A DNA stretch of 64,000 nucleotides from Sulfuricellaceae bacterium (GCA_050177075.1 JBFXHL010000001.1:3349-67348), one strand, 5' to 3'; positions 1-43,843 are shown, counted from the first letter of the stretch. Notes: generated by a model from the letters alone, not told the origin. Numbers and translations: made by a program.

Positions 1-1
1 T

Positions 2-1345
2 GGAGTCGGAACAGTCACCTCCGAAACCCTGTGGGCCACCCTGACCGAAGCCTGCCGCCGGCTGGAAACCGAACCGCCCCGCTGCAAGAAACTCGACGGC
101 CTGATCGGGCGCCTCACGGATTACCGCTGGTGGCGCAAGACCCTTCGCCGCCGCACCATGCGCACCCGGGAAGCCGGGGCCATCAAGGCCGGCTTTGTCC
201 ACCGCAAGGCCGGCCTCTACGCCTCCGATGAAACCATGGCCCGCCACCGCCAGCACCGCAAGCTGGGCGCCCAATACCTCGAAATGATGGAAGCCATCAA
301 CGAGTTGGGGGAAATCTTCACCCTGGATGAAATCGCCGCCGGCAATGTGAGCAACCCCGCCGTCCGCCGGGCGGAACTCATGGTCCGCATCAAGGGCATG
401 GAGGCATACGCCCAAGGGAAAGGGCTCCGTGCCCTGTTCGTCACCTGGACCTGCCCCAGCCGGATGCACTCCCGCCGCGACAACGGCACCCCCAACCCCA
501 AGTACGACACCACCACCCCCGCGCTTGCCCACCGCCACCTGCAAGCCCAATGGGCCAAGGCCCGCGCCAAGCTGAAACGGGAGGGCGTGAACTGCTTCGG
601 CCTGCGGGTGGAAGAACCCCACCACGACGGCACCCCGCACCGCCATATTCTGCTGTTCGTCCACCCCCTCCAGGTGGGCCGCCTGACCGCCATCCTGACC
701 CGCTACGCCCTGGAGCACGACGCCGACGAACCCGGCGCCCAAAAGCACCGCCTCACCGTGGAGCGCATCGACCCGGCCAAGGGCAGCGCCGCCGGCTACG
801 TGGCGAAGTACATCGCCAAGAACGTAGACGGTGAGCACGTGGGCCTGGACTTCGAAGCGAACGGTGAAAGCGCCGCCACCACCGCCGAGCGCGTCAACGC
901 CTGGGCCGCCACCTGGGGCATTCGCCAGTTCCAGTTTTTCGGCGGCCAGAAGGTCACCCCCTGGCGCGAACTGCGCCGGCTGCGTGAGGAGCCCCAGGGC
1001 GAATTCAGCGCCCCATGGTTCCACGCAGACAGGGGGGATTGGGACGGCTACACCCGGGCCATGGAGGAAGCGCCCCTGGCCCTGTGGACAGAGCCCCGCC
1101 CCAGCCTGCGCTATGCAGGCGAGGAAAGCACGATCATCAAGGGCCTGGAGTTCGGGCCGGAGAAGCTGAAAACCCGCGTCCACGAATGGCGGATTGAGCC
1201 GAAAGCGGGGGCCTTTGCTCCCCCTTGGACTCGTGTAAATAACTGTACGCGGCACCCTGACGCGCCCCCGGAACCGGGAAAAAAGAACGCCGCCCCGGGC
1301 AGTTTTAAGCCCGGAAGCGGCGGGAAGTTGCCGGGTCAGGCGTGA
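2..1345 (+). CDS. Rolling-circle replication endonuclease, P2 GpA-like (5' end cut by window edge)
   Basis: Frame is open from nt 2 into the listed ORF 158..1345. HUH-type motif HRHILLF, Tyr motif GYVAKYIAKN and the FVTWTCPSRMH block are typical of the Phage_GPA family. Confidence 0.8.
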   Translation, partial: GVGTVTSETLWATLTEACRRLETEPPRCKKLDGLIGRLTDYRWWRKTLRRRTMRTREAGAIKAGFVHRKAGLYASDETMARHRQHRKLGAQYLEMMEAINELGEIFTLDEIAAGNVSNPAVRRAELMVRIKGMEAYAQGKGLRALFVTWTCPSRMHSRRDNGTPNPKYDTTTPALAHRHLQAQWAKARAKLKREGVNCFGLRVEEPHHDGTPHRHILLFVHPLQVGRLTAILTRYALEHDADEPGAQKHRLTVERIDPAKGSAAGYVAKYIAKNVDGEHVGLDFEANGESAATTAERVNAWAATWGIRQFQFFGGQKVTPWRELRRLREEPQGEFSAPWFHADRGDWDGYTRAMEEAPLALWTEPRPSLRYAGEESTIIKGLEFGPEKLKTRVHEWRIEPKAGAFAPPWTRVNNCTRHPDAPPEPGKKNAAPGSFKPGSGGKLPGQA

Positions 1346-2052
1346 AGGCGACCCGGCATAGGCCAAATGATAGCACAATGAGAACCATTCGCAACATGAA
1401 GCCGACACGATCAGCACACAATCAGCGAAAAAAGACCGGATGGTCCTACCGGATGCAGGCTATCGAGCCCACCGACCCGACCATTAACCAGGTGTTCCCC
1501 GGCTACCATCCGCAATGGGTCATGCAGTCGCAGAAAATGACCATCGGCCCGGAGAATTTCCGGCTCTTGCGGGAATGGATGCTGGGCATGAACACCGAGG
1601 AATGCGGCGCCTATCTTCGCGTGGCCCCTTCCACCGTCCGCCGCTGGGAGGCCGGCACGGTCCCCGTGCCCTTCACGGCCTTCGAACTGCTGCGACTGGT
1701 GTATGAAAGCGTCCATTTCCGCCTGTCCGGCCACGATTGGGCGGGCTGGTTCATCGGCGAGAATGGCCGGCTGGTGTCCCCCGACATCGGCGGCTTGGAT
1801 GTCTCGCCGCAGGACGTGAACGCCATCCCCGGCCTGCTCCGCGAAATCGGCCAGCTCAAGGCCGAGAATGCCGAACTCGCCGCCAAGCTCGCCCAGGCCC
1901 AGGAAGAAAATACCCGCCTCCGGGGACAGTACGTTTCCCAGGGCGTGGTGGACGAAATCACCGACATGCAGGAACGCCTAGCCGACCTGCTGGGCCGGCT
2001 CAACACCGCCAAGGTCTACAACTTCCCCCAACCCAAGGAGGCCGCAGCATGA
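1342..2052 (+). CDS. Island protein with HTH-like segment and C-terminal coiled coil (start uncertain)
   Basis: ORF track. EECGAYLRVAPSTVRRWEAG looks like an HTH. C-terminal LKAENAELAAKLAQAQEENTRLRG is a coiled coil. The GTG at 1342 overlaps the upstream stop; internal ATGs are also possible starts. Confidence 0.55.
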   Translation: MKATRHRPNDSTMRTIRNMKPTRSAHNQRKKTGWSYRMQAIEPTDPTINQVFPGYHPQWVMQSQKMTIGPENFRLLREWMLGMNTEECGAYLRVAPSTVRRWEAGTVPVPFTAFELLRLVYESVHFRLSGHDWAGWFIGENGRLVSPDIGGLDVSPQDVNAIPGLLREIGQLKAENAELAAKLAQAQEENTRLRGQYVSQGVVDEITDMQERLADLLGRLNTAKVYNFPQPKEAAA

Positions 2053-2219
2053 AACCCGATTTCCGCCTGAAACCCGGCGAATCCGCCCCGCAAGCCATCA
2101 CCCGGCTTTACCGGCACCTTCGCACCCTGAGCCCCGCCCACAAGCCCGACAGCCACTACGCGGCCCGCATCAAGAGCCGCGCCGCCGAGCGCCGGGCACA
2201 ACTGCACTTGGTGAAATAA
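2049..2219 (+). CDS. Small hypothetical island protein (56 aa)
   Basis: ATG at 2049 overlaps the stop of the upstream gene (ATGA). It lies within track ORF 1737..2219. No recognisable family. Confidence 0.35.
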   Translation: MKPDFRLKPGESAPQAITRLYRHLRTLSPAHKPDSHYAARIKSRAAERRAQLHLVK

Positions 2220-2222
2220 ACC

Positions 2223-2423
2223 ATGCTCTTCCTGACGGACGCCGAACTTTTCGAACTGACCGGCAAGCGCCTGCCTTCGGCGCAATGCCGCGCCCTGACG
2301 CTGATGGGCATCCGGTTCGTGCAGCGTCCCGATGGGAAGCCAAAAATCCCCCGTGCATGGATTGAAGGCGCACAGCAGCAAGCTCCGCGGCGCCCCGTCC
2401 TCGTCCTGGAAGCCATCAAGTAA
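2223..2423 (+). CDS. DUF4224-like small protein (family usually found just upstream of phage integrases)
   Basis: MLFLTDAELFELTGKRLPSAQCRAL... resembles DUF4224. Its stop overlaps the integrase start at 2423. Confidence 0.55.
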   Translation: MLFLTDAELFELTGKRLPSAQCRALTLMGIRFVQRPDGKPKIPRAWIEGAQQQAPRRPVLVLEAIK

Positions 2424-3397
2424 TGCCCCGCCCACGCTACCGCAATCAAGCCCTGGCCCCCTATCCGGGGCTGGTGGCGCGAAAGCTCAAGACCAAAACC
2501 CGCTACTACCTGGAAACCTTCGAAGGCAAGCGCGTACCCCTGGGGGACGAACTCCAAAAGGCCATCGAACGCTATAACGACCTGCTCAACGTCCCCATCG
2601 CCGGGGCCGTGACCTTCGCCCACGCCGCCAAGCAGTACCGGGAAAAATGCCTGCCCAAAAAAGGCCTCAAGACCCAACGGGACCAGGAAAAGCAACTGGA
2701 TACCCTGCTGGCCGCCTTCCCCCACGCCCTGCTGGATGAAATCGACCCCCAGCACATCGCCCAATACCGGGACAAGCGAAGCGCCAAGGTATCGGCAAAT
2801 CGGGAAATCGCCCTCCTCTCCCACCTGTGGAACTGGAGCCGGGAACAGGGCTACACCAACAAGGCCAACCCGACCCAGGGTGTAAGGAAGAACCCCGAGC
2901 GCGCCCGGGAACGCTACGTCAGCGACGACGAATACGAGGCGGTTTGGGAACAGGCTGACCACGCCCTCCAGGACGCCATGGACCTGGCGCTCCTCACTGG
3001 CCAGCGCCCCGGCGACGTGTTCTCCTGGAAGCTCTCCGACATCCGGGACGGCTACCTGCACGTCCTCCAGGCCAAGACACGAAAGCCGCTGCGCATTGAA
3101 ATCAGCGGCGAACTGGCAGAGGTGATCGAACGCATCAAGGGCCGGCCACGCAACGCCACCGGCAACTGGCTGGTTCAAACCGAGAATGGCCAACGCCTGA
3201 CCTACGCCATGTTCCGCAAGCGCTTCGAGAAAGCGAGGGAGGCCGCCGGGGCCGACTGGCAGTTCCGCGACCTGCGGGCCAAGTCCGCCAGCGACAGCGA
3301 CACCCTGGCCGAAGCTCAGGAACGACTGGGCCACGAATCCAGCCGAACCACCCGCCGGCACTACCGGCGCGGCGAAAAAACGAAGCCCCTCAGATGA
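2423..3397 (+). CDS. int: Tyrosine recombinase / phage-type integrase
   Basis: 324 aa. C-terminal catalytic region ...RDLRAKSASD...LGHESSRTTRRHYRR (the H-x-x-R ... Y pattern of tyrosine recombinases). Lies next to the 3' end of a tRNA. Confidence 0.9.
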   Translation: MPRPRYRNQALAPYPGLVARKLKTKTRYYLETFEGKRVPLGDELQKAIERYNDLLNVPIAGAVTFAHAAKQYREKCLPKKGLKTQRDQEKQLDTLLAAFPHALLDEIDPQHIAQYRDKRSAKVSANREIALLSHLWNWSREQGYTNKANPTQGVRKNPERARERYVSDDEYEAVWEQADHALQDAMDLALLTGQRPGDVFSWKLSDIRDGYLHVLQAKTRKPLRIEISGELAEVIERIKGRPRNATGNWLVQTENGQRLTYAMFRKRFEKAREAAGADWQFRDLRAKSASDSDTLAEAQERLGHESSRTTRRHYRRGEKTKPLR

Positions 3398-3426
3398 AAA
3401 ATAATGAACGGATAGTGAACGGGTGC

Positions 3427-3460
3427 AGAAAAAGTTAGGGCCTGCTCACTGGCAGGCCCT
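3427..3460 (-). terminator. Rho-independent terminator 8 nt downstream of tRNA-Thr
   Basis: Minus strand reads AGGGCCTGC-CAGTGA-GCAGGCCCT followed by AACTTTTTCT. Confidence 0.6.
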
Positions 3461-3467
3461 TATCTAC

Positions 3468-3543
<76 letters not shown>

Positions 3544-3554
3544 GGAAAGCCGGA

Positions 3555-3583
3555 ATTATACGGACCGGAGAGGGAAACGGCAA
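3555..3583 (-). promoter_or_regulatory. Sigma70-like promoter for tRNA-Thr
   Basis: Minus strand reads TTGCCG-N17-TATAAT. The -10 element ends 11 nt before the mature tRNA 5' end. The -35 element abuts the stop of the upstream Fur-family gene. Confidence 0.55.
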
Positions 3584-4012
3584 TCAGGCGGGACGAGCGG
3601 TGGAACGCACGCGGACGATGATATCCACGCCTTCGCTCACCACACCGGCGGGCAAGTTAGGCAGGCCGGAAATCCGCAGGTCGGAGGAGTCGATGTCCAT
3701 CAGTTCGCCGGTGTCCAGGTCGTACATGTGATGGTGCTCGTGGGTGTTGGGGTCGTAGAACACCTTACCGGCGTTGACGATCACCTCGCGCACCAGTTTC
3801 TTTTCGACGAACAGGTTGAGGGTATTGTACACCGTGGCCTTGGAGGTCTCGCTGTGCTTGGCGTTGACCGCCGCCATGATCTGGTCGGCGGACAGGTGGG
3901 CCATGCGGGAGAACAGGGCATAGGCAATCTCGATCCGCTGGTGTGTCGGGTTGATGCCGTGGCCACGCAGCAGCTCGATGATGGTATCGCGGGAATAGCT
4001 GATATGTTCCAT
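3584..4012 (-). CDS. Fur-family transcriptional regulator lacking the CxxC zinc motifs (Irr-like features)
   Basis: 142 aa. N-terminal winged-helix region (THQRIEIAYAL...ATVYNTLNLFVEKKLV) and the motif NTHEHHHMYDLDTGEL, where classical Fur has HHHDH..C..C. Confidence 0.85.
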   Translation of the reverse strand: MEHISYSRDTIIELLRGHGINPTHQRIEIAYALFSRMAHLSADQIMAAVNAKHSETSKATVYNTLNLFVEKKLVREVIVNAGKVFYDPNTHEHHHMYDLDTGELMDIDSSDLRISGLPNLPAGVVSEGVDIIVRVRSTARPA

Positions 4013-4030
4013 GGACTTACTATAAACCCA

Positions 4031-4051
4031 TTGCTAGACAATGTCTAACAA
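4031..4051. promoter_or_regulatory. 21-bp near-perfect palindrome upstream of the Fur-family gene (candidate operator)
   Basis: TTGCTAGACA-A-TGTCTAACAA, with 9/10 arm matches. It lies 19-39 nt upstream of the start at 4012, in an AT-rich stretch. Confidence 0.4.
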
Positions 4052-4071
4052 TTATTTTTATGGGTCCCATG

Positions 4072-4101
4072 GAAAAATTGCCCGCCCCGGGAGGGGCGGG
4101 C
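4072..4101 (-). terminator. Rho-independent terminator of fbp
   Basis: Perfect 9-bp stem GCCCGCCCC-loop-GGGGCGGGC followed on the minus strand by AATTTTTC, 8 nt after the fbp stop. Confidence 0.7.
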
Positions 4102-4109
4102 AACGGGCA

Positions 4110-5114
4110 TTACTCCTTGTGGTAGGAGACGATGCGTTCCACTTCGTTCTTGGAGCCCAGGATCACGGGCACGCGCTGGTGGATGTGGTCGGGCTGGATG
4201 TCCATGATGCGCTCGCGACCGGTGGAGCTCACGCCGCCGGCCTGCTCGACGATGAAGGACATGGGGTTGGCTTCGTACATCAGGCGCAGCTTGCCGGGCT
4301 TGGTGGGGTCCTTGGTGTCCTTGGGGTACATGAACACGCCGCCGCGCATCAGGATGCGGTGCACTTCGGCCACCATGGAGGCAACCCAGCGCATGTTGAA
4401 GTTCTCGCCACGGGGGCCTTCCTTGCCCTGCAGGCACTCTTCCACGTAACGCTGCACGGGGGCTTCCCAGAAGCGCTCGTTGGAGGCGTTGATGGCGAAT
4501 TCCCGGGTATCGGGCTTGATCTGGATGTTGGCGTGGGTGAGGATGAATTCGCCCACTTCACGGTCCAGGGTGAAGCCGTTCACGCCGTGGCCGCAGGTCA
4601 GCACCAGCATGGTGGAGGGGCCGTAGATGGCGTAGCCGGAAGCCACCTGCTTGGTGCCGGGCTGAAGAAAATCCTTCTCGGTGGCCTCGGTCACGCCCTC
4701 AGGGGCACGCAGGATGGAGAAAATGGTGCCGACGGAAATGTTCACGTCGATGTTGGAGGAGCCGTCCAGGGGATCGAACACCAGCAGGTACTTGCCGCGG
4801 GGGTACTGGGCGGGGATGGGCAGAATCTCTTCCATCTCCTCGGAGGCCATGGCGGCCAGGTGGCCCGCCCACTCGTTGGAGCGGATCATGATGTCGTTGG
4901 TGATGACGTCCAGTTTCTTCTGGGTCTCGCCCTGCACGTTCTCGCTGCCGGCGGAGCCGAGGACGCCGATGAGGTCGCCCTTGTTGACGGCGTTGGAGAT
5001 CACCTTGATGGCGGTGACGGTGTCGTTGAGCAGACCGGTGAAATCGCCGGTGGCGCCCTTGACGCGGCGCTGTTCCTCGATGATGAACTGGGTCAGTGTG
5101 GTGCCGATATGCAT
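4110..5114 (-). CDS. fbp: Fructose-1,6-bisphosphatase class 1
   Basis: 334 aa. N-terminus [25 protein letters not shown] and the rest are collinear with class I FBPase. Confidence 0.95.
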
Positions 5115-28276: not shown

Positions 28277-28825
28277 CTAGGAAGCGGCGCGGCGCAGGGT
28301 TTCCAGCTCCACCCGTACCGAGCCGTCCTCCCCCGTCAGGAGGATTTCCCCTTCCTGGATGGTGGCCTGGAGGCGCATGGTGCGCCGGGCCATGGCCGCC
28401 AACTCCTGGGTGGCGGCGTAGGGCAGGTTGAACACCGTCAGGTTCGCCGCCCGGGCCAGCTTCGGCCCCACCTGGCTCCACCACAGTTCCGCCCCCCGCC
28501 CGCCGTAGGCATAGACCACCACCTGGGCGGCCCGGCCACAGGCCTTGAGAACGCGGCGTTCGTCCGGCAGCCCCACCTCGATCCAGCGCTCGACGGCGCC
28601 GGTCAGGTCACGCTGCCACAGGTCCGGCTCCTCCGTCTCGCTCAGCCCCTTGCCGAAGGCCAGGGCCTCGTCGGCGTTATGGGCGAAGGCCAGGAGCCGC
28701 ACCATCATCCGCTCGTCGGTCTCCGACGGATGGCGGGCCAGGGTCAGGCTGTGGTCGCGGTAATAGTGGCGGTCCAGGTCGGCGATCTGGAGGTCGGCTT
28801 TGTAGACGGTGGCTTTGAGGGCCAT
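28277..28825 (-). CDS. yaeQ: YaeQ family protein
   Basis: 182 aa. MALKATVYKADLQIADLDRHYY..HSLTLARHPSETDERMMVRLLAF is a typical YaeQ sequence. Confidence 0.85.
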   Translation of the reverse strand: MALKATVYKADLQIADLDRHYYRDHSLTLARHPSETDERMMVRLLAFAHNADEALAFGKGLSETEEPDLWQRDLTGAVERWIEVGLPDERRVLKACGRAAQVVVYAYGGRGAELWWSQVGPKLARAANLTVFNLPYAATQELAAMARRTMRLQATIQEGEILLTGEDGSVRVELETLRRAAS

Positions 28826-29074
28826 TGAACATTTCCCCGTGAGATGAAAGGCGATTCCACGCCGAGCCGGTTTAAACTTGGCCCGTCCCGGCCCAGGGTG
28901 GCGATTATATTGGATATAACGGGCAACAGCTCTCCCTCGCCCCATTCCCCAGCCGAGTCCGTCACTGAAGACGACTTCGTTCAGTTAAATTGTTTCCCTC
29001 TGTCAAGGAATTACCCCTTAGCAGACGCCACCCCGGGGCCATCACTTTCCCCACCATGCCTACAGGAGACAACC

Positions 29075-30343
29075 ATGAACCATCTCGTCACCCCCTTCGC
29101 CCACACTCCCGCCTTCGTCAACGCCCCCGAGCCGGACTTCCTCGCCCGCCGGGTGAACCGCTACTACCAGGAGCGGGTTCTCGACACCTGGGACGGCGGT
29201 CATATCATGCGCGGCCGCCACCCCGGCCCGGACGCCATCCACCTAAGCAGCAACGATTACCTGTCCCTGGCGCGGCATCCGAAGATTCTGCGGGCGTCGG
29301 CGGAAAAGCTGGTGGATGAGGGCAACGGCCTGCTGATGTCGGCGATTTTCCTCCACGGCGACAATCCCCTTCTCAACATGGAGCGGCGCCTGGCCAACTT
29401 CATGGGGGCCGAGTCCGGGGTGCTGTGCCAGTCTGGCTTCGCCGCCAACACCGGGCTGGTGCAGTCCATCGCCGACGAAAAGACCCCCGTCTACGTCGAC
29501 ATGATGGCCCACATGTCCCTGTGGGAAGGCATCCGCAGCGCCGGCGCCCGCCCCGTGGTGTTCCACCATAACGACGTCGAGCACCTGGAGCGCCAGGTGC
29601 TCAAATACGGCCCCGGGGTGATTCTGGTGGATTCGGTGTACAGCACCAACGGCAGCGTCTGCCCCCTGGCGGAGGTGGTGGACGTGGGCACCCGCCACGG
29701 CTGCGTGCTGGTGGTGGACGAATCCCATTCCCTCGGCACCCATGGCCGCCAGGGGGAAGGGATGGTGGAGGACCTGGGGCTGTCCCACAAGGTGCATTTC
29801 CGCACCGCCAGCCTGGCCAAGGCCTTCGCCGGACGGGCCGGCTTCATCGCCTGCTCGGAGCGCTTCAGCGAATATTTCAAGTTCGAATCGAACCCGGCGA
29901 TTTTCAGCTCCACCCTGCTGCCCCACGAGGTGGCCGGGCTGGAGGCCACCCTGGAGGTGACCCGGGAGGAGCACTGGCGCCGCCTCGCCCTACGCGCCAA
30001 CGCCGCCTACCTGCGGGAGCGCCTGGACGAGCTGGGCTACAACCTGAACGGCAGCCAGTCCCAGATCATCGCCCTGGAATCAGGCACGGAGCGGCAGACC
30101 ATCGTGCTACGGGACGCCCTGGAAGCGCGGGGGATTTTCGGTTCGGTGTTCTGCGCCCCGGCGACGCCGAAAAACCGCTCCCTGATCCGGCTGTCGATCA
30201 ACGCCACCCTGACGGAAGAGGAGCTGGAGCGCATCGTCGACGCCTGCCGCGACATCCGCGGCGAGGTGGACATGGCCAACTGGGCCTCAACCCGGCGCAA
30301 GGCCGCCCGCGGCGACGCCCTGCCCCATAGCGACGCGGCCTGA
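29075..30343 (+). CDS. cqsA: Alpha-hydroxyketone autoinducer synthase (CqsA/LqsA family, PLP-dependent class II aminotransferase fold)
   Basis: 422 aa; AGGAG lies 7 nt upstream. Blocks match V. cholerae CqsA from memory: SNDYLSLARHP, VYVDMMAHMSLWEG, DSVYSTNGS..PLAE, VVDESHSLGTHG, HFRTASLAKAFAGRAG, NPAIFSSTLLPHEVAGLEATLE, GIFGSVFCAPATPKN..IRLS. Confidence 0.88.
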   Translation: MNHLVTPFAHTPAFVNAPEPDFLARRVNRYYQERVLDTWDGGHIMRGRHPGPDAIHLSSNDYLSLARHPKILRASAEKLVDEGNGLLMSAIFLHGDNPLLNMERRLANFMGAESGVLCQSGFAANTGLVQSIADEKTPVYVDMMAHMSLWEGIRSAGARPVVFHHNDVEHLERQVLKYGPGVILVDSVYSTNGSVCPLAEVVDVGTRHGCVLVVDESHSLGTHGRQGEGMVEDLGLSHKVHFRTASLAKAFAGRAGFIACSERFSEYFKFESNPAIFSSTLLPHEVAGLEATLEVTREEHWRRLALRANAAYLRERLDELGYNLNGSQSQIIALESGTERQTIVLRDALEARGIFGSVFCAPATPKNRSLIRLSINATLTEEELERIVDACRDIRGEVDMANWASTRRKAARGDALPHSDAA

Positions 30344-30360
30344 CGGCGAGGGGGCGGCGC

Positions 30361-31380
30361 CTAGGCGAAGGAGGCGCTGCTTTCCTTGTCCAGCCACACC
30401 AGGAAAGCGTTGTAGGGAATGACCGTGCCCAGCTGGAAGCCGGCCGGGTTCGGCACCACGGCGTAGTAGTACCACTCCCGCCCCTTGAGTTCCGTGGCGG
30501 GGTAGAGGCACGACTGCCAGTCGCAGTCGGGGCCGTACTCGCCCCCCGTTTGCCAGAAATAGGGCACCATCCGGTTGCTCTTCAGGGCGCTGAGGAGGGG
30601 CGGCGGCGCCGCCTGGTCGTAGGCGATCTCGTAGTGGGAAAGCATATCCTCCTCGGTCTGGACGATGAGCAGGCTCGCCACGCCGTCCGCATCCAGCATC
30701 AGGATGCCTTCCGGCAAGGCCGTCAGGTAGAACTCGACGATATCCAGCCGGTTGCATATCTGGCGGAATTCCTCGGCGAAGGCCGGGTCCCGCAGGAAGG
30801 TGTGGGAGCCCAGGGCCAGGGTATCCATCACCGTCCGCCCCAGGCTCTCGAAATAGGCCAGCTGCAGGTCCACGATGGCCCGGTTGAGGACGGGAATGAC
30901 GTCCGGGTCCTGCTTGAGGATGAAGCGGTCGATCAGGCCCTGGTTGAAGGCCTGCACCGCCACCTTCTCGTCCGCCTTGCCCGTCAGCAGCACTTTTTTC
31001 AGGGTCGGGTTGTCGAGGCGGCGGCACAGCTCCAGGCCGTCGATCTCGGGCATGTCGTAGTCCACCACCACCACCGACACCTGTTCGAACCGATGCTCGT
31101 TGTGGACTTCCCGGGCGATGGCGTCGAGGTTGAGGTCGATGACGTGGTGGGAAAAGGGCAGTTCCTCCCCGTGGCGGGACACGGAAAAGAAGCGTTCCGC
31201 CAGGGACGGCTCGGCGGGCGCGCCGTTCAGCACCGCCAGGGCTTCCGCCGGGGAATCGTAGAGACGGTAGGCGAGACCGGCGTCGAGCTGCAGGCTCAGG
31301 TTGGCCAGGAAATCGGGGCTGTCGTCGATGAAAATTACCGTGGTCGGGAAATAGAACGGCGGGATTTCATTTTGCCGCAT
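30361..31380 (-). CDS. Orphan receiver-domain protein with a non-DNA-binding C-terminal domain (LqsR-like)
   Basis: 339 aa. Receiver signatures are VIFIDDSPDF, VVVVDYDMPEIDG (putative acceptor Asp107) and LLTGKADE. The ATG overlaps the kinase stop (TGATG). Confidence 0.75.
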   Translation of the reverse strand: MRQNEIPPFYFPTTVIFIDDSPDFLANLSLQLDAGLAYRLYDSPAEALAVLNGAPAEPSLAERFFSVSRHGEELPFSHHVIDLNLDAIAREVHNEHRFEQVSVVVVDYDMPEIDGLELCRRLDNPTLKKVLLTGKADEKVAVQAFNQGLIDRFILKQDPDVIPVLNRAIVDLQLAYFESLGRTVMDTLALGSHTFLRDPAFAEEFRQICNRLDIVEFYLTALPEGILMLDADGVASLLIVQTEEDMLSHYEIAYDQAAPPPLLSALKSNRMVPYFWQTGGEYGPDCDWQSCLYPATELKGREWYYYAVVPNPAGFQLGTVIPYNAFLVWLDKESSASFA

Positions 31381-32693
31381 CAACCGCTTGCCGCAGGAAA
31401 GGTTAAAACGAACTCGCTGAACTCGCCCACCGTCGACTCGCATGAAATACTCCCACCAAACGCTTGCATGACGCTCTGGCAGTACGCCAGACCGATACCG
31501 GCACCCGAACCGTCGTCGTGGCCCAAGGACCAGGCGTAGAACCGGGTGAAAATGTGCGGCAGCACGTGGGGCGGGATGCCCGGCCCCGTATCGCGGAAAA
31601 TCAGCCGCCCGCCCACCGACGACGATTCCAGCCGGATGGCGATCTGCCCCTTGCCTGCCTTGGTGACATGATAGACCGCATTCTTGAGCAGGTTGAATAG
31701 CACGTGCACCATCATCAACTCGTTGCCGCGGAAAATGAAGTCCTGCCCCCGCTCCCACGTCACCAGGCGCCGCTCCCGTTCCGAGGCGAAAGGATAGCGC
31801 CGCAGGGCCGTCTCGACGCAGGACGCCATGGAACAGGGAGCGAAATTTTCCTCCCGGAAGCCGAAGGGCTTGGTGTTCATCAACAGCATGTCGATGGCGG
31901 TGTTGGAATAGTCCGCCTCCCCCTCGATGCGCTCCAGCACCCCGGCCATGGACGCCAGGTGCGCCTCCCGCAGCGGCTCCACCGGCAGGCCTTCCTCCCG
32001 GGCCTGGCGATAAGCGTCCAGCAGGGCGGGCAGGTGCTGCTTCAGCCCCGCCGCCCCGGCCTTGATGCCCAGGAGGGGCGTGCGCAACTCATGGGCCACG
32101 GTGCTGGCGGCGGTCAGCATGGCCCGCAGGCGCTCCCGCTTCACCACCTCCGAGCTGTAGTTCGCCGCCGCGCCGATGACGATGATGAACAGGTAGATGG
32201 GCACATGCTCCAGGCTGACGGACTCCAGGTGGGGTCCCGCCGTCGTCAGGCTGTAAGCCAGCCAGGCCAGGCCGATTCCTACCACGCTCTGGATGAACAG
32301 ATTCAACCAGTCCAGCAGCAGCACCATCAGGAAGGCCGCCGCCAGGGCGGACAGCAGCCAGACGCTGTCGCCGTTGTTCTTCAGCAGCATGAAGGTGAAG
32401 AAGAACGGCAGGGCGAAGAGAACGGCCAGATACCAGTAACCCGCCAGATAGGGACGCAGTCCCTTGGGCCAGTATTTCGCCAGCATCACCGGCACGAACA
32501 GGGCGCTGCCGAATAGCCGCAGGGGCAGGTTCTCGTAGGGCTGGGGGAAAAGGTCGTGCCAAATGAAGTAATAGAGGGGGAAGCCCACCACCGCCACCAG
32601 CCCGAAGGGCAGGAAGCGCGGCTCGAAATACAGCACGCTGCGCTCCACGGTGGCGTAGGCCCGTTGCGCCAGGTTCTTGACTCCCTCCATCAT
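31380..32693 (-). CDS. cqsS: CqsS/LqsS-type membrane sensor histidine kinase (no C-terminal receiver domain)
   Basis: 437 aa with about 6 N-terminal TM helices. Carries the family hallmark FPQPYENLPLR, the H-box VAHELRTPL, and N/G boxes (LLKNAVYH, DTGPGI, GSGAGIGL). Confidence 0.85.
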   Translation of the reverse strand: MMEGVKNLAQRAYATVERSVLYFEPRFLPFGLVAVVGFPLYYFIWHDLFPQPYENLPLRLFGSALFVPVMLAKYWPKGLRPYLAGYWYLAVLFALPFFFTFMLLKNNGDSVWLLSALAAAFLMVLLLDWLNLFIQSVVGIGLAWLAYSLTTAGPHLESVSLEHVPIYLFIIVIGAAANYSSEVVKRERLRAMLTAASTVAHELRTPLLGIKAGAAGLKQHLPALLDAYRQAREEGLPVEPLREAHLASMAGVLERIEGEADYSNTAIDMLLMNTKPFGFREENFAPCSMASCVETALRRYPFASERERRLVTWERGQDFIFRGNELMMVHVLFNLLKNAVYHVTKAGKGQIAIRLESSSVGGRLIFRDTGPGIPPHVLPHIFTRFYAWSLGHDDGSGAGIGLAYCQSVMQAFGGSISCESTVGEFSEFVLTFPAASG

Positions 32694-32763
32694 CGCGTAT
32701 CGCTCGTTTCGGCTTGCCTCGAAAATGCCACTTTACCCCGGCGGGGGGCAGAAAAAAACCGCC

Positions 32764-32795
32764 GCAAAAAAGAACCCCCCGTCGAAGCGGGGGGT
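32764..32795 (-). terminator. Rho-independent terminator of ssb
   Basis: Minus strand reads ACCCCCCG-CTTCGA-CGGGGGGT followed by TCTTTTTTG. Confidence 0.75.
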
Positions 32796-32819
32796 CGTTT
32801 TACTGCCGGGTTTCGCCAC

Positions 32820-37776: not shown

Positions 37777-37900
37777 ACGGAGGCGTCCGCGCCAGGCGGA
37801 CCCGGGGGGTGTGGCCCAGGACCAGCGTGGCCACGTTCTGCACGGGCTCCCCAGACGTGATACCCTTGCGCCAAACAACATAAACACCCCGGGGACATTC

Positions 37901-38704
37901 ATGCATTCCATCACCATCAGCGAGATCGGCGTCTTTCTGGTCGAGCCTTCCGGCGTTCAGGCCCAATTCATCACCCGGCGACTGGAAGAACTGGGCGTCA
38001 TCCGCATCAAGACCTTCGGCGACGCCCAGAGCGCCCTGGCGGAAATGCGCCGCCAGCCGCCCGACCTGGTAATCAGCAGCCTCCACCTGCCGGATATGAG
38101 CGGCGCCGAACTGGTGCAGGCCATGCGCAGCGACGAGCAGCTGCGGGAAACCGCCTTCATTCTGGTCTCCAGCGAAACCAAGCCTCACTACCTGGAGCCG
38201 GTGCGCCAGGCAGGCGCCTGCGCCATCCTGCCCAAGCCGGTGGAAACCGCCACCCTGCGCACGGCCCTCCTCGCCTCACTCGACTACCTCCAGCCCAACA
38301 CCCTCAAACTGGACGTTTCGGGCATCGACCTGGAAAGCCTGCGGGTGCTGGTGGTGGACGACAGCCGCAGCGCCCGTGCCTTCATCCGCCGGGTGCTGGA
38401 GAACCTGGGCATCGTCAACATCACCGAGGCCGAGAACGGCCGCCAGGCGGTGGAAATCATCAACGAAGGCTACTTCGACCTGGTGGTGACCGACTACAAC
38501 ATGCCGGAAATGGACGGCCGGGAGCTGACCGAATTCATCCGCACCAAGAGCTGGCAGGGCTCCCTGCCCATCATGATGGTGTCCAGCGAACAGGACCAGG
38601 AACGCCTCGCCGCCGTCCAGCAGGCCGGGGTGTCCGGCATCTGCGACAAGCCCTTCGAGCCCGCCGTGGTCAAGGACCTGATCGAGCGCATGCTGGCGGT
38701 GTAG
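37901..38704 (+). CDS. Two-receiver-domain protein: degenerate pseudo-receiver plus canonical CheY-like receiver, no output domain
   Basis: REC1 has VEPSG and LVISSLHLPDMSG, with Ser at the acceptor position. REC2 has VVDDS, LVVTDYNMPEMDG and CDKPF. Confidence 0.8.
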   Translation: MHSITISEIGVFLVEPSGVQAQFITRRLEELGVIRIKTFGDAQSALAEMRRQPPDLVISSLHLPDMSGAELVQAMRSDEQLRETAFILVSSETKPHYLEPVRQAGACAILPKPVETATLRTALLASLDYLQPNTLKLDVSGIDLESLRVLVVDDSRSARAFIRRVLENLGIVNITEAENGRQAVEIINEGYFDLVVTDYNMPEMDGRELTEFIRTKSWQGSLPIMMVSSEQDQERLAAVQQAGVSGICDKPFEPAVVKDLIERMLAV

Positions 38705-39698: not shown

Positions 39699-40580
39699 AT
39701 GTCTCACAAGCACCCCATCATTGCGGTGACCGGCTCGTCAGGCGCCGGCAGCGAGCCGGTGATGTCGGCATTCAAGCATCTGTTCTGGCGGGAGAAGGTC
39801 ACGGCGGCGGTGGTGCAGGGAGACGGCTTCCACCGCTACGACCGGGAGGCGATGAAGGCGGCGGTCAAGGCTTCCCTCCAGGCCGGCAAACGGCCCATCA
39901 CCCATTTCGGCCCCGAGGGCAACCTGCTGCCGGAGCTGGAAGCGCTGATGGTGGAGTACGGCAAGAAGGGCAGCGGCAAGAGCCGCCACTACATCCACTG
40001 CGAGGCCGACGCCGCCGAACACGGCCAGCCCCCCGGCACCCTCACCCCCTGGGCGCCCCTGCCCGACAATACCGACCTGATGCTTTACCAGGGGTTGCAC
40101 GGCGGCTACGTCGGGAAAGAGGCGGACATCGCCCGGCACGTGGACCTGCTCATCGGCGTCACCCCCATCGTCAACCTGGAGTGGATTCAGAAGCTCCACA
40201 AGGACATCAACGACCGGGGTTATTCCCGCGAAGCCATCACCCACGTCATCCTGGAGCGGATGCACGACTACGTCCACCACATCACGCCCCAGTTCTCCCG
40301 TACCCATATCAACTTCCAGCGGGTGCCGGTGGTGGACACCTCCAACCCCTTCATCGCCCGGGACGTGCCCAACCTGGACGAGAGCCTGATGGTGATCCGC
40401 TTCCGCTACCCGAAAGGGGTGAATTTTCCCTACCTGCTGGAAATGCTGCACGACTCCTTCATGTCCCGCCCCAACACCCTGGTGGTACCCGCAGGCAAGG
40501 CCCTGCAGGCGATGGAGGTGATTTTCGGCCCCCTCCTCCACGAGCTGATGGAAAGGCGGCGGGCCGCCAAGAAAGGCTAG
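39699..40580 (+). CDS. prk: Phosphoribulokinase
   Basis: 293 aa. MSHKHPIIAVTGSSGAGSE...QGDGFHRYDR is a typical bacterial PRK sequence. Confidence 0.9.
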   Translation: MSHKHPIIAVTGSSGAGSEPVMSAFKHLFWREKVTAAVVQGDGFHRYDREAMKAAVKASLQAGKRPITHFGPEGNLLPELEALMVEYGKKGSGKSRHYIHCEADAAEHGQPPGTLTPWAPLPDNTDLMLYQGLHGGYVGKEADIARHVDLLIGVTPIVNLEWIQKLHKDINDRGYSREAITHVILERMHDYVHHITPQFSRTHINFQRVPVVDTSNPFIARDVPNLDESLMVIRFRYPKGVNFPYLLEMLHDSFMSRPNTLVVPAGKALQAMEVIFGPLLHELMERRRAAKKG

Positions 40581-41287: not shown

Positions 41288-43843
41288 TTAACGGCGCCCT
41301 TTCGGGGCGGGTTTGTGTCGGCGGGGGGCGGGCCCGGAGGAACGCGGCCGCCGCGTGTCCTTGTCGGGTTCCCGGCCGGCGCCGGCGGGCTGCCAGGCTG
41401 GCACCAGGCATTTCTTGGCGTTGCCGATGAGGTCGGCGCGGCCCATTTTCTTCAGGGTCTCCCGCAGCAGGGGCCAGTTTTCCGGGTCGTGGTAACGGAG
41501 GAAGGCCTTGTGCAGCTTGCGCTGCCGCGCGCCGAAGGGCACCGGCACTTCCTCGCTCTTGCGCGTCACCCGCTTCAGGGGGTTGCGGTGGCTGTGGTAC
41601 ATGGCGGTGGCCAGGGCCATGGGCGTGGGGAGGAAGGTCTGCACCTGATCCGGGCGGAAATCGTTGGCCTTGAGCCACAGGGCCAGGTTGAGCATGTCCT
41701 CGTCGGTGGTGCCGGGATGGCCGCCGATGAAGTAGGGAATCAGGTACTGCTCCTTCTTCGCCTCCCGGGAATAGGCGTCGAACAGCTCCTTGAAGCGGTA
41801 GTAGGTGTCGATGCCCGGCTTCATCATTTTCGACAGGGGCCCCGCCTCGGTATGCTCGGGGGCGATCTTGAGGTAGCCCCCCACATGGTGGGCCGCCAGC
41901 TCCCGCACGTATTCCTTGGAGCGCACCGCCAGGTCGTAGCGTACGCCGGAGCCGATCAGCACCTTCTTGATGCCCCGCAGGGCCCGGGCCTTGCGGTAGA
42001 GGGACACCAGGGGCCCGTGGTCGGTGCCCATGTTGACGCAGATATCCGGATAGACGCAGCTCAAGCGGCGGCAGGCGGACTCGATGTTCGGGTCCTTGCA
42101 CTTCAACCGGTACATGTTGGCGGTGGGGCCGCCCAGGTCGGAGATGATGCCGGTGAAGCCGGGGGTCTTGTCCCGCACCTCCTCCACCTCCCGCAGCACC
42201 GAGGCCTCGGAGCGGCTCTGGATAATGCGACCCTCGTGCTCGGTGATGGAGCAGAAGGTGCAGCCGCCGAAACAGCCGCGCATGATGGCGACGGAAAAAC
42301 GGATCATCTCCCAGGCGGGAATCTTCGCCTCGCCGTAGGCCGGGTGGGGCCGGCGGGCGTAGGGCAGCTCGTACACCCGGTCCAGCTCCTCGGTCTCCAG
42401 GGGAATGGGCGGCGGGTTGACCCACACGTCCCGGTCGCCGTGGGCCTGGACCAGGGCCCGGGCGTTGCCGGGGTTGGACTCCAGGTGCAGCACCCGGGAG
42501 GCATGGGCGTAGAGCAGGGGGTCGGCCTTCACCTGTTCGTAGGAAGGGAGGCGGACCACGGTGTGCTGTCGGTCGGGTTTATTCCCCTCTCCCGCAGGCG
42601 GGAGAGGGGCTAGGGGAGAGGGAAGGCGTGACGGCGAAGCCGCAGAGGGAAAACCCATCCCCACCGCCAATCGGATGGCTTCCAGTACCGCCTCGGTTTC
42701 CTGCAACACCTCATTGTTCCAGAACCGCAACACGCGAATACCTTCCTGTTCGAGGTATTTCGTACGCTCAGTGTCGTATGCCACTTGTTCCGCGTGCTGC
42801 CCACCGTCCAACTCGATATTCACCTTCTTCTCAGGACAGTAGAAATCCAGGATATAGCGTCCAACCGGATGCTGGCGGCGGAACTTCAGACCGAAAAAGC
42901 GCTTTGCGCGCAGGACTCCCCACAACAAGCCTTCGGCGTCAGTTTGATGGGTGCGCAGTTCGCGGGCGAAAGCGAGAATGTCCACCTGCAAGGGTTTGAC
43001 GGGATAACGGGTTTTTCCCTCTCCCCCAACCCCTCCCCCGCCTGCGGCGGCTGAGACGGCTTCGCCGCCACGCCTTCCCTCTCCCCCAACCCCTCCCCCG
43101 CCTGCGGGGGAGGGGAGCGTGTCGTCGACGTCGGATGAATCGAGTTCTCTCCACCCCTCCCCCGGCAACCACCCTTTCGGCCGCATGAAGGCCGTCCCCC
43201 GCAGGTCGGTAATGTCGCCGATCTTCTCGCCCTTCGCCAGGCGGTGGGTCAATTCCACCAGGGCCCGTTCGGCGTTGCCGAACAGCAGCAGGTCCGCCTT
43301 GGCGTCCGGCAGCACCGAGCGGCGCACGGTGTCGGACCAGTAGTCGTAGTGGGCGATGCGGCGCAGGCTCGCCTCGATGCCTCCCAGCACCACGGGCACG
43401 TCCGGGTAGGCCTCGCGGCAGCGCTGGGAATAGACCAGCACCGCCCGGTCGGGGCGCCTGTTTCCCTCGCCTCCGGGGGTATAGGCGTCGTCGGAGCGGA
43501 TTTTTCGCTCGGAGGTGTAGCGGTTGACCATGGAGTCCATGTTCCCCGCCGTGACGCCGAAATACAGGGTAGGACGGCCCAGGGCCTTGAAGGCTTCCGC
43601 CGACTGCCAGGCGGGCTGGGCGATGATGCCGACGCGGAAGCCCTGGGCCTCCAGCAACCGCCCCACCAGGGCCATGCCGAAGCTGGGATGGTCGATATAG
43701 GCGTCTCCCGTGACCAGGATCACGTCGCAGGCGTCCCAGCCCAGGGCGTCCATCTCCTGCCGGCTCATGGGCAGGAAAGGGGCGGTACCGAAGCGTTTGG
43801 CCCAGTGGGGGCGATAGGAGAAGAGGGGTTTGGCGGCTTCCAT
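41288..43843 (-). CDS. ygiQ: YgiQ-family radical SAM protein carrying an in-frame ~177-aa insertion (DUF559 cassette)
   Basis: Collinear with E. coli YgiQ ([58 protein letters not shown]) except for residues ~243-420. Confidence 0.92.
42584..42656 (+). repeat. Terminal inverted repeat, right-hand copy (reads inward on + strand)
   Basis: Hairpin CCCCTCTCCCG-CAGG-CGGGAGAGGGG, then CTAGGGGAGAGGGAAGGCGTGACGGCGAAGCCG...GAGGGAAAACCC. Confidence 0.85.
43009..43115 (-). repeat. Terminal inverted repeat, left-hand copy (reads inward on - strand), with an internal 33-nt tandem duplication
   Basis: Reverse complement reads CCCCTCCCCCG-CAGG-CGGGGGAGGGG TTGGGGGAGAGGGAAGGCGTGGCGGCGAAGCCG..., 54/59 identical to 42584-42642. 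TTCCCTCTCCCCCAACCCCTCCCCCGCCTGCGG occurs at both 43015 and 43075. Confidence 0.85.

Follow-up and report, generated by a model that had tools for sequence, protein, structure and literature searches.

Complete sets of an alpha-hydroxyketone (AHK) synthase, a sensor kinase and a response regulator (lqsA, lqsS and lqsR) have been described in Burkholderia xenovorans and Polaromonas (PMC3376566), and in Janthinobacterium and Duganella together with genetics (PMC3566124, PMC5080296). In Legionella, the kinases LqsS and LqsT autophosphorylate, the signal LAI-1 inhibits them, and LqsR dimerises upon phosphorylation of Asp108 (PMC5289986). In this study, we analysed 64,000 nucleotides of DNA from a Sulfuricellaceae bacterium (GCA_050177075.1 JBFXHL010000001.1:3349-67348; this whole stretch is referred to below as the window), in which positions 29075-32693 hold a cluster of three genes of this kind. 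Our findings suggested that the cluster is very probably a functional Lqs-type AHK quorum-sensing module in an uncultured Sulfuricellaceae bacterium. The identification is correct and the module is ordinary; its layout has already been catalogued in hundreds of related bacteria. In a 2023 survey, 206 representative genomes of Betaproteobacteria had LqsR orthologues; most of these orthologues belonged to lqs clusters, frequently with the gene order seen here, and the supplementary table gives lqsA(+)..0..lqsR(-)..0..lqsS(-) for Paludibacterium purpuratum and the adjacent convergent layout also for Paludibacterium yongneupense and Paraburkholderia acidipaludis (PMC10653808). A preliminary description of the window had considered a complete set in a betaproteobacterium noteworthy, a view that we do not share, as such sets have been described since about 2010 (PMC3376566, PMC3566124) and catalogued widely (PMC10653808). 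None of the Rhodocyclales and Nitrosomonadales genera that we searched for by name occurred in the survey table, which lists class and species and not order (PMC10653808); the Sulfuricellaceae lineage is therefore a modest extension of the known range. In the literature searched, we found no description of quorum sensing in Sulfuricellaceae.

The synthase gene (29075-30343, plus strand, 422 aa) converges on two minus-strand genes, of which the first encodes a sensor histidine kinase (31380-32693, 437 aa) and the second a response regulator (30361-31380, 339 aa). An open reading frame (ORF) check of the window upheld the coordinates and strands that had been proposed for all three. Related loci were obtained by a scan with a CqsA alignment, in which one genome per species was allowed and the 80 best loci were kept; no Vibrio or Legionella was among them. 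A Vibrio cholerae locus was added from a metagenome scan using the CqsA sequence of PDB 3HQT, yielding a CqsA 100% identical to the PDB sequence and an adjacent 686-aa CqsS (locus L081), and a Legionella locus (L085) was reached by a homologue search with the LqsR sequence of PDB 6SY9 followed by a contig look-up. The triad of a synthase, a kinase of 427-454 aa and an LqsR-type regulator was present at all 80 loci. At 70 of them the synthase was convergent on a kinase-then-regulator pair, and at the remaining 10 (Salinisphaera, Endozoicomonas) the three genes were co-directional. The triad is inherited as one unit. Among the 80 were Paraburkholderia xenovorans LB400 and Nitrococcus mobilis, which had been named as carriers of lqs clusters over a decade ago (PMC3376566), and the closest relatives included Sulfurimicrobium and Gallionella metagenome-assembled genomes. 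Judged by dN/dS values of 0.05-0.13 against the closest relative, a 95%-identical locus (L001), all three genes are under purifying selection, the ratio being 0.067 for the synthase, 0.052 for the regulator and 0.129, the highest of the three, for the kinase. The catalytic residues, the phospho-acceptor residues and the ligand pocket are conserved.

The assignment of the synthase to the CqsA/LqsA family of pyridoxal phosphate (PLP)-dependent AHK autoinducer synthases, proposed earlier from the sequence, was borne out at every comparison. The protein passed NF005526, the NCBIfam equivalog model for AHK synthases, with 609.8 bits against a cutoff of 428. The earlier proposal would have been undone by a grouping with BioF or Kbl, and the comparison of hidden Markov models gave no such grouping: the BioF model reached 258 bits (cutoff 426), the Kbl model 229 bits (cutoff 460), and the serine palmitoyltransferase (SPT) and aminolevulinic acid synthase (ALAS) models all fell far under their cutoffs. 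The nearest solved structure was V. cholerae CqsA (3HQT, E=3e-113, 381.9 bits), with the next solved family at 156.9 bits. The synthase was 49% identical to V. cholerae CqsA and 47% identical to Legionella LqsA of locus L085. Lys249, the PLP-binding lysine, stands in an invariant column and aligned with K256 of the CqsA chain, K236 in native numbering; the PLP lysines have been numbered K236 in CqsA and K258 in LqsA (PMC3376566). A longer form of the ORF could begin at 28844. The family model alignment begins at residue 16 of the 422-aa form, and the JGI and NCBI gene callers independently arrived at 422 aa.

In the kinase, Pfam identified HisKA and HATPase_c (residues 324-435, E=4e-22) and nothing beyond the latter, so the protein carries no receiver domain. 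Its N-terminal motif FPQPYENLPLR occupies residues 49-59, and its H-box, AHELRTPL, contains His201. Both features had been noted before, the motif as a hallmark of CqsS/LqsS kinases, and both held up in the alignment: the hallmark, written [FY]PQxYE[NS]LxLR, was found in 84 of 85 kinases, among them LqsS (FPQAYESLLLR) and CqsS (FPQSYENLGLR), and His201, in the dimerisation and histidine phosphotransfer (DHp) domain, was invariant and aligned with LqsS H200 and CqsS H194. The residues of the N box and G box were also invariant. Hydropathy gave five segments above 1.5, and a sixth, shorter segment (residues ~60-72) came from hand calculation only; the count of six transmembrane helices proposed earlier rests also on alignment with CqsS, which has six, and the membrane sensor spans residues ~27-177. 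The kinase aligned end to end with Legionella LqsS (41% identity, E=3e-88), and with V. cholerae CqsS only over CqsS residues 8-413 of 686 (33% identity, E=6e-72). Because it ends at residue 437, just past HATPase_c, and aligns to that part of CqsS only, the kinase is by its sequence a true member of the family and belongs to its non-hybrid LqsS subtype, as had been suggested; the C-terminal receiver-like and receiver domains of the CqsS subtype are absent. NCBIfam returned only generic families for the kinase and the regulator (a LuxN kinase core, NosR/FixJ receivers) and no LqsS/CqsS- or LqsR-specific match for either, and for the kinase the comparison loci were used instead.

The resemblance extends to the membrane domain, for which a specific similarity to CqsS/LqsS had been predicted: kinase residues 1-185 were 36.5% identical to LqsS and 32.8% identical to CqsS, and the residues in contact with the signal CAI-1 were largely kept. 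The CAI-1 contacts of V. harveyi CqsS have been given in a 2026 cryogenic electron microscopy preprint (PMC13174287), which also reports a contact between synthase and DHp domain in Vibrio, and the CAI-1 contacts were transferred to the kinase of the window via alignment. All three head-group hydrogen-bond contacts were identical (Trp45, Arg59 and Ser115), Arg59 being the final arginine of the hallmark motif, as were six of the eight tail contacts (Phe38, Tyr41, Leu95, Phe98, Phe99 and Phe169). The conserved contacts were nearly invariant across 82 non-Vibrio homologues, and this near-invariance supports one sensing mechanism common to the whole family.

The regulator begins with a receiver domain (Pfam Response_reg) in which Asp107 lies within VVVDYDMP, confirming the acceptor position of ~107 that had been given for this 339-aa protein. 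Its likeness to LqsR, which had been proposed earlier, was substantiated over the full length. Residues 3-333 matched residues 23-356 of PDB 6SY9, described by Foldseek as L. pneumophila LqsR, with E=6e-86 and 148 of 330 positions identical (~45%), and Asp107 aligned with chain residue D128, which is native LqsR D108. The receiver active site (Asp19/Asp20, Asp107, Thr133, Lys156) was conserved across 83 sequences, and the receiver domain carries an insertion of ~45 residues at ~55-100. The structure prediction that had been recommended pointed the same way. An AlphaFold model (pLDDT 82, pTM 0.82) superposed on 6SY9 as its top Foldseek match (E=4e-31, TM-scores 0.82/0.90, root-mean-square deviation 2.2 A over 331 columns), and the next matches were to the REC-GGDEF protein WspR, with TM-scores of 0.33-0.34. 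The C-terminal output domain (~190-339) is LqsR-type and GGDEF-like, a fold that has been described in LqsR as degenerate and apparently inactive (PMC10653808). A search of 1.8 billion representative proteins at E<=1e-30 gave 823 LqsR-family clusters at 50% identity, and the 150 best-scoring representatives of these were mostly about 330-350 aa.

At the junction of the two minus-strand genes the sequence reads ggtTGATGcgg, so that the TGA of the kinase and the ATG of the regulator share one base within TGATG (31378-31382), an overlap implying, as far as sequence can tell, translational coupling of kinase and regulator. The overlap pointed out in the preliminary description is real and family-wide. 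A stop/start overlap occurred at 74 of the 80 related loci, as the -4 ATGA type in 60 and as the -1 type in the clade of the window, and for this reason translational coupling is a trait of the family and not a peculiarity of the window.

By analogy with the described systems, the module could work as follows. The synthase would condense an amino-acid-derived unit, which in Vibrio is S-adenosylmethionine or 2-aminobutyrate, with a medium- or long-chain acyl-CoA, as other members of its family do, giving an amino- or enamino-ketone that would lead to a 3-hydroxy-4-ketone autoinducer (PMC3376566). The six-helix kinase would bind this lipid-like signal inside the bundle of its transmembrane helices, where Trp45, Arg59 and Ser115 would contact the head group and a cleft of aromatic and aliphatic residues, largely conserved, would hold the tail. 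Homology with LqsS/LqsT and LqsR predicts that, in the absence of signal, the kinase phosphorylates itself at His201 and the phosphate is then transferred to Asp107 of the regulator, whereupon the regulator would dimerise; binding of the signal is expected, by the same homology, to turn the kinase off. Production of kinase and regulator from one transcript with overlapping codons may favour a fixed stoichiometry. The output is the weakest step of this scheme. The regulator lacks a DNA-binding domain, and its C-terminal part has a degenerate fold of GGDEF-like type, so it would probably act by protein or nucleotide interaction and not by direct promoter binding.

Several points weigh against a working Lqs-type module. 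The module is known here from sequence and predicted structure, and the product assigned to the synthase is that of its family. A scan with a sigma-70-like consensus found no promoter upstream of the synthase or the kinase, and TTGAN6/7TCAA, the JAI-1 motif of Janthinobacterium, had 0 matches in 64 kb, where 0.63 would be expected by chance. Two tail contacts on helix 6 of the kinase, Ile173 and Ala177, are unlike those of Vibrio. For LqsR itself, diguanylate cyclase activity was looked for and not detected (PMC10653808). The Legionella locus used for comparison is not that of L. pneumophila itself, its LqsR being 91% identical to the crystallised L. pneumophila protein.

Other explanations could be offered for the cluster. 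The synthase might be a housekeeping acyltransferase of BioF/Kbl type that happens to lie beside an unrelated, generic two-component pair, an explanation encouraged by the Pfam matches, which are generic throughout (Aminotran_1_2, HisKA/HATPase_c, Response_reg), and by the generic annotation of the kinase and regulator at NCBI. We regard it as scarcely credible and reject it, as it was refuted by the model scores, the kinase, the regulator and the co-occurrence tests alike: the AHK synthase model passes and those for BioF, Kbl, SPT and ALAS do not, no solved family other than CqsA (382 bits) exceeds 157 bits, the membrane domain of the kinase shares 33-37% identity with its counterparts in CqsS and LqsS and keeps the ligand contacts, and the regulator matches LqsR along its full length within a triad that recurs at every one of the 80 loci. 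Very improbable, too, is the suggestion that the cluster is the inactive remnant of a horizontally acquired cassette. Its genomic position is not conserved, the right flank being common to L001 only and homology ending 14 nt upstream of the synthase start, and recognisable promoters were not found in the scan; a remnant would nevertheless be hard to reconcile with ORFs that are all intact and retain their catalytic residues, with the low dN/dS ratios, with identical proteins in several independent metagenomes, and with a G+C content like that of the neighbours.

The remaining alternatives accept the module and concern what it senses and what it does. It is possible, though we hold it doubtful, that the signal is not a classical CAI-1 or LAI-1 but differs in the length of its acyl chain or in having an amino or enamino group at its head, giving a chemically private system with no cross-talk with signals of the Vibrio or Legionella type. 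Such a signal would refine the reading of the cluster as an Lqs-type module rather than exclude it. The helix-6 residues Ile173 and Ala177, at positions that contact the tail, differ from Vibrio, Ala177 corresponding to V. cholerae Cys170 and to a Phe in V. harveyi; the Cys170 position sets the tail-length preference of V. cholerae CqsS, and small residues there relax selectivity (PMC3285556). Janthinobacterium JqsA failed to complement Vibrio cqsA mutants (PMC3566124), and the kinase has the highest dN/dS of the three genes. Against a private signal speak the identical Trp, Arg and Ser head-group contacts, including the Ser that hydrogen-bonds the C3 hydroxyl, and the 47-49% identity of the synthase to the makers of C13 and C15 hydroxyketones. 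Another suggestion, which we judge unlikely, is that the regulator has no conventional output: it would serve mainly to control the kinase, by drawing off phosphate or as its phosphatase partner, or would feed cyclic di-GMP (c-di-GMP) signalling via its GGDEF-like domain. Legionella LqsR abolishes autophosphorylation by catalysing the dephosphorylation of phospho-LqsS and phospho-LqsT (PMC5289986), and a link to c-di-GMP would agree with WspR as the best structural match after LqsR and with the degenerate GGDEF motif reported for LqsR (PMC10653808). The WspR alignments have low TM-scores, however, and the missing cyclase activity of LqsR also argues against c-di-GMP, while deletion of the regulator PhcX in Ralstonia solanacearum alters hundreds of transcripts, implying a real output (PMC10653808). 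Going further, we tentatively consider an AHK chemically distinct from CAI-1 and LAI-1 that acts, via a GGDEF-like output domain which does not bind DNA, on a regulon particular to Sulfuricellaceae as chemolithotrophic sulfur oxidisers; the small helix-6 residues Ile173 and Ala177 would in that case permit a longer or otherwise different tail. Such a combination is possible but improbable. Taken together, the Lqs-type AHK module remains the explanation that we favour.

Signals for transcription around the module were sparse. The synthase diverges from yaeQ, and the intergenic region between them (28826-29074, plus strand) is the presumed site of the synthase promoter; it includes a ribosome-binding site, AGGAGA (29064-29069), 6 nt upstream of the start. 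The sole promoter-like site in the scan lay inside the synthase gene (29181-29208). The synthase and regulator genes, whose stop codons converge, are separated by a 17-bp spacer (30344-30360), in which the scan gave no terminator-like hairpin. Such spacers ranged from -4 to 273 bp in the 70 convergent beta- and gammaproteobacterial loci and measured 257 bp in the Legionella locus. Downstream of ssb, between it and the kinase gene at about 32763-32796, stands a G+C-rich hairpin of 9 pairs, 7 of them G-C. A T-run follows it distinctly on the minus strand, and the T-rich tail on the plus strand is less pronounced. The hairpin recurs in L001 and was the only convincing terminator found in the scan. 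Because this strong hairpin follows ssb, kinase and regulator are probably transcribed as a separate unit, which the hairpin may insulate from ssb transcription, and the presumed promoter and leader of the operon would lie between the ssb terminator (32773-32796) and the kinase start (32694-32772, minus strand). When the upstream regions of the synthase and kinase genes of seven close relatives were aligned, no common motif other than the ribosome-binding site was seen; as the JAI-1 motif is absent too, the window offered no clue to a regulon.

The cluster lies among housekeeping genes, as the preliminary description had stated, with yaeQ, an HI0933-like flavoprotein gene, a DUF2059 gene and cstA to its left and ssb, a major facilitator superfamily transporter gene and uvrA to its right. 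Contigs from three independent metagenome sources carried identical proteins in unchanged order, and the gene arrangement is therefore not an assembly artefact. A compositional island was considered and rejected, as both the G+C and the third-position G+C of the cluster were those of neighbouring genes. Within the 64-kb window there was no second (LqsT-like) kinase and no additional copy of any of the three genes. The closest relative, L001, shares 95% DNA identity from 29061 to past ssb, and its homology is lost entirely 14 nt upstream of the synthase start, leaving the left flank and promoter region not in common; no other locus among the 80 shared flanks with the window. This divergence of L001 upstream, together with the lack of shared flanks elsewhere, indicated that the cassette moves over evolutionary time. 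Since upstream homology is absent, the near-identical synthase genes of L001 and the window must use different promoters. Where the window has yaeQ (28277-29060), L001 has other ORFs (1-3313). From their translations only, these include a 255-aa lookalike of EEP/CdtB-like nucleases, two that are seemingly secreted and one with a GIY-YIG-like motif.

The source genome is listed by NCBI as a Sulfuricellaceae metagenome-assembled genome of the order Nitrosomonadales. The host had earlier been called Rhodocyclales-like, which was wrong because Sulfuricellaceae fall within Nitrosomonadales. A phosphoribulokinase gene (39699-40580, plus strand) is consistent with an autotrophic (Calvin cycle) Sulfuricellaceae host. 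Directly downstream of uvrA, a gene at 37811-38704 (plus strand) encodes a 297-aa protein with two receiver domains and no output domain. Farther along the window, an 851-aa YgiQ-type radical SAM protein (41288-43843, minus strand) contains an in-frame DUF559 domain, Vsr/restriction-endonuclease-like, at residues 290-392 inside its N-terminal domain. At the ends of this insertion (~42583-43116) are inverted repeats of 60 nt, with 92% complementarity and 414 nt between them; their 33-nt core was found at this site only within the window, and read in frame they encode Gly/Pro-rich linkers. The insertion resembles a small DUF559 element, bordered by terminal inverted repeats, that entered a host gene with the reading frame kept.

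Our finding adds an uncultured member of the Sulfuricellaceae (Nitrosomonadales), one more lineage on a long list of environmental Proteobacteria with Lqs-type signalling. It raises no new question beyond the reach of the existing model systems in Legionella, Janthinobacterium and Cupriavidus. Its practical value is one of annotation, since public records name the synthase only: the NCBI record already calls it an alpha-hydroxyketone-type quorum-sensing autoinducer synthase, and the kinase and regulator are labelled generically.

Set beside the CqsA-CqsS system of Vibrio, the window has a synthase that is 49% identical with the PLP lysine kept, and a sensor domain that is 33% identical with 3/3 head-group and 6/8 tail contacts. 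CqsS is a 686-aa hybrid kinase whose receiver-like and receiver domains feed LuxU/LuxO, whereas the kinase of the window ends at its catalytic domain and is paired with a regulator of LqsR type, a component not present at the Vibrio loci. The Lqs system of Legionella (LqsA, LqsR, HdeD, LqsS and the orphan LqsT) also combines a non-hybrid kinase with a separate LqsR-type regulator, and the identities to the window were 47% for the synthase, 41% for the kinase (H200 against His201) and ~45% for the regulator (D108 against Asp107). Locus L085 has the classic order lqsS, hdeD, lqsR, lqsA, and between its lqsS and hdeD lies a 531-aa gene without a Pfam match (3410-5005), which makes the gap 2.6 kb. 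Unlike the Legionella locus, the window has neither an hdeD/DUF308 gene nor the intervening 531-aa gene. Its kinase and regulator genes are co-directional and overlap, in contrast to a gap of 2614 bp in the Legionella locus, and the placement of hdeD between regulator and kinase that characterises the Legionella lqs architecture is not seen; the layout is that of Betaproteobacteria. Legionella has the orphan LqsT, and no second LqsT-like kinase was found within 64 kb here; the host, moreover, is free-living and presumably sulfur-oxidising, whereas Legionella is an intracellular pathogen.

Closer in lineage is the JQS system of Janthinobacterium (JqsA, JqsS, JqsR), functionally validated through its control of violacein (PMC3566124, PMC5080296), which by its description likewise consists of a betaproteobacterial AHK synthase, a non-hybrid kinase and an LqsR-type regulator. 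The JAI-1 motif lies upstream of jqsA in Janthinobacterium and is absent throughout the window. PhcX of R. solanacearum is another member of the regulator family and combines a receiver with an LqsR-type output domain (PMC10653808), yet it is an orphan, unlinked from lqsA/lqsS and situated beside phc genes, whereas the regulator of the window is still coupled to its kinase and synthase. The closest likeness is to the betaproteobacterial lqs clusters of Paludibacterium, Paraburkholderia (including P. xenovorans LB400), Massilia and other genera, catalogued in Table S5 of PMC10653808 and earlier by Tiaden and Hilbi (PMC3376566). They have the same adjacent lqsA(+), lqsR(-) and lqsS(-), and their proteins are 68-80% (synthase), 52-79% (kinase) and 45-79% (regulator) identical to those of the window. 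The kinase-regulator overlap is more often ATGA in these clusters and the one-base TGATG in the window; otherwise, only the host lineage and the flanking genes, yaeQ and ssb, set the window apart from them.

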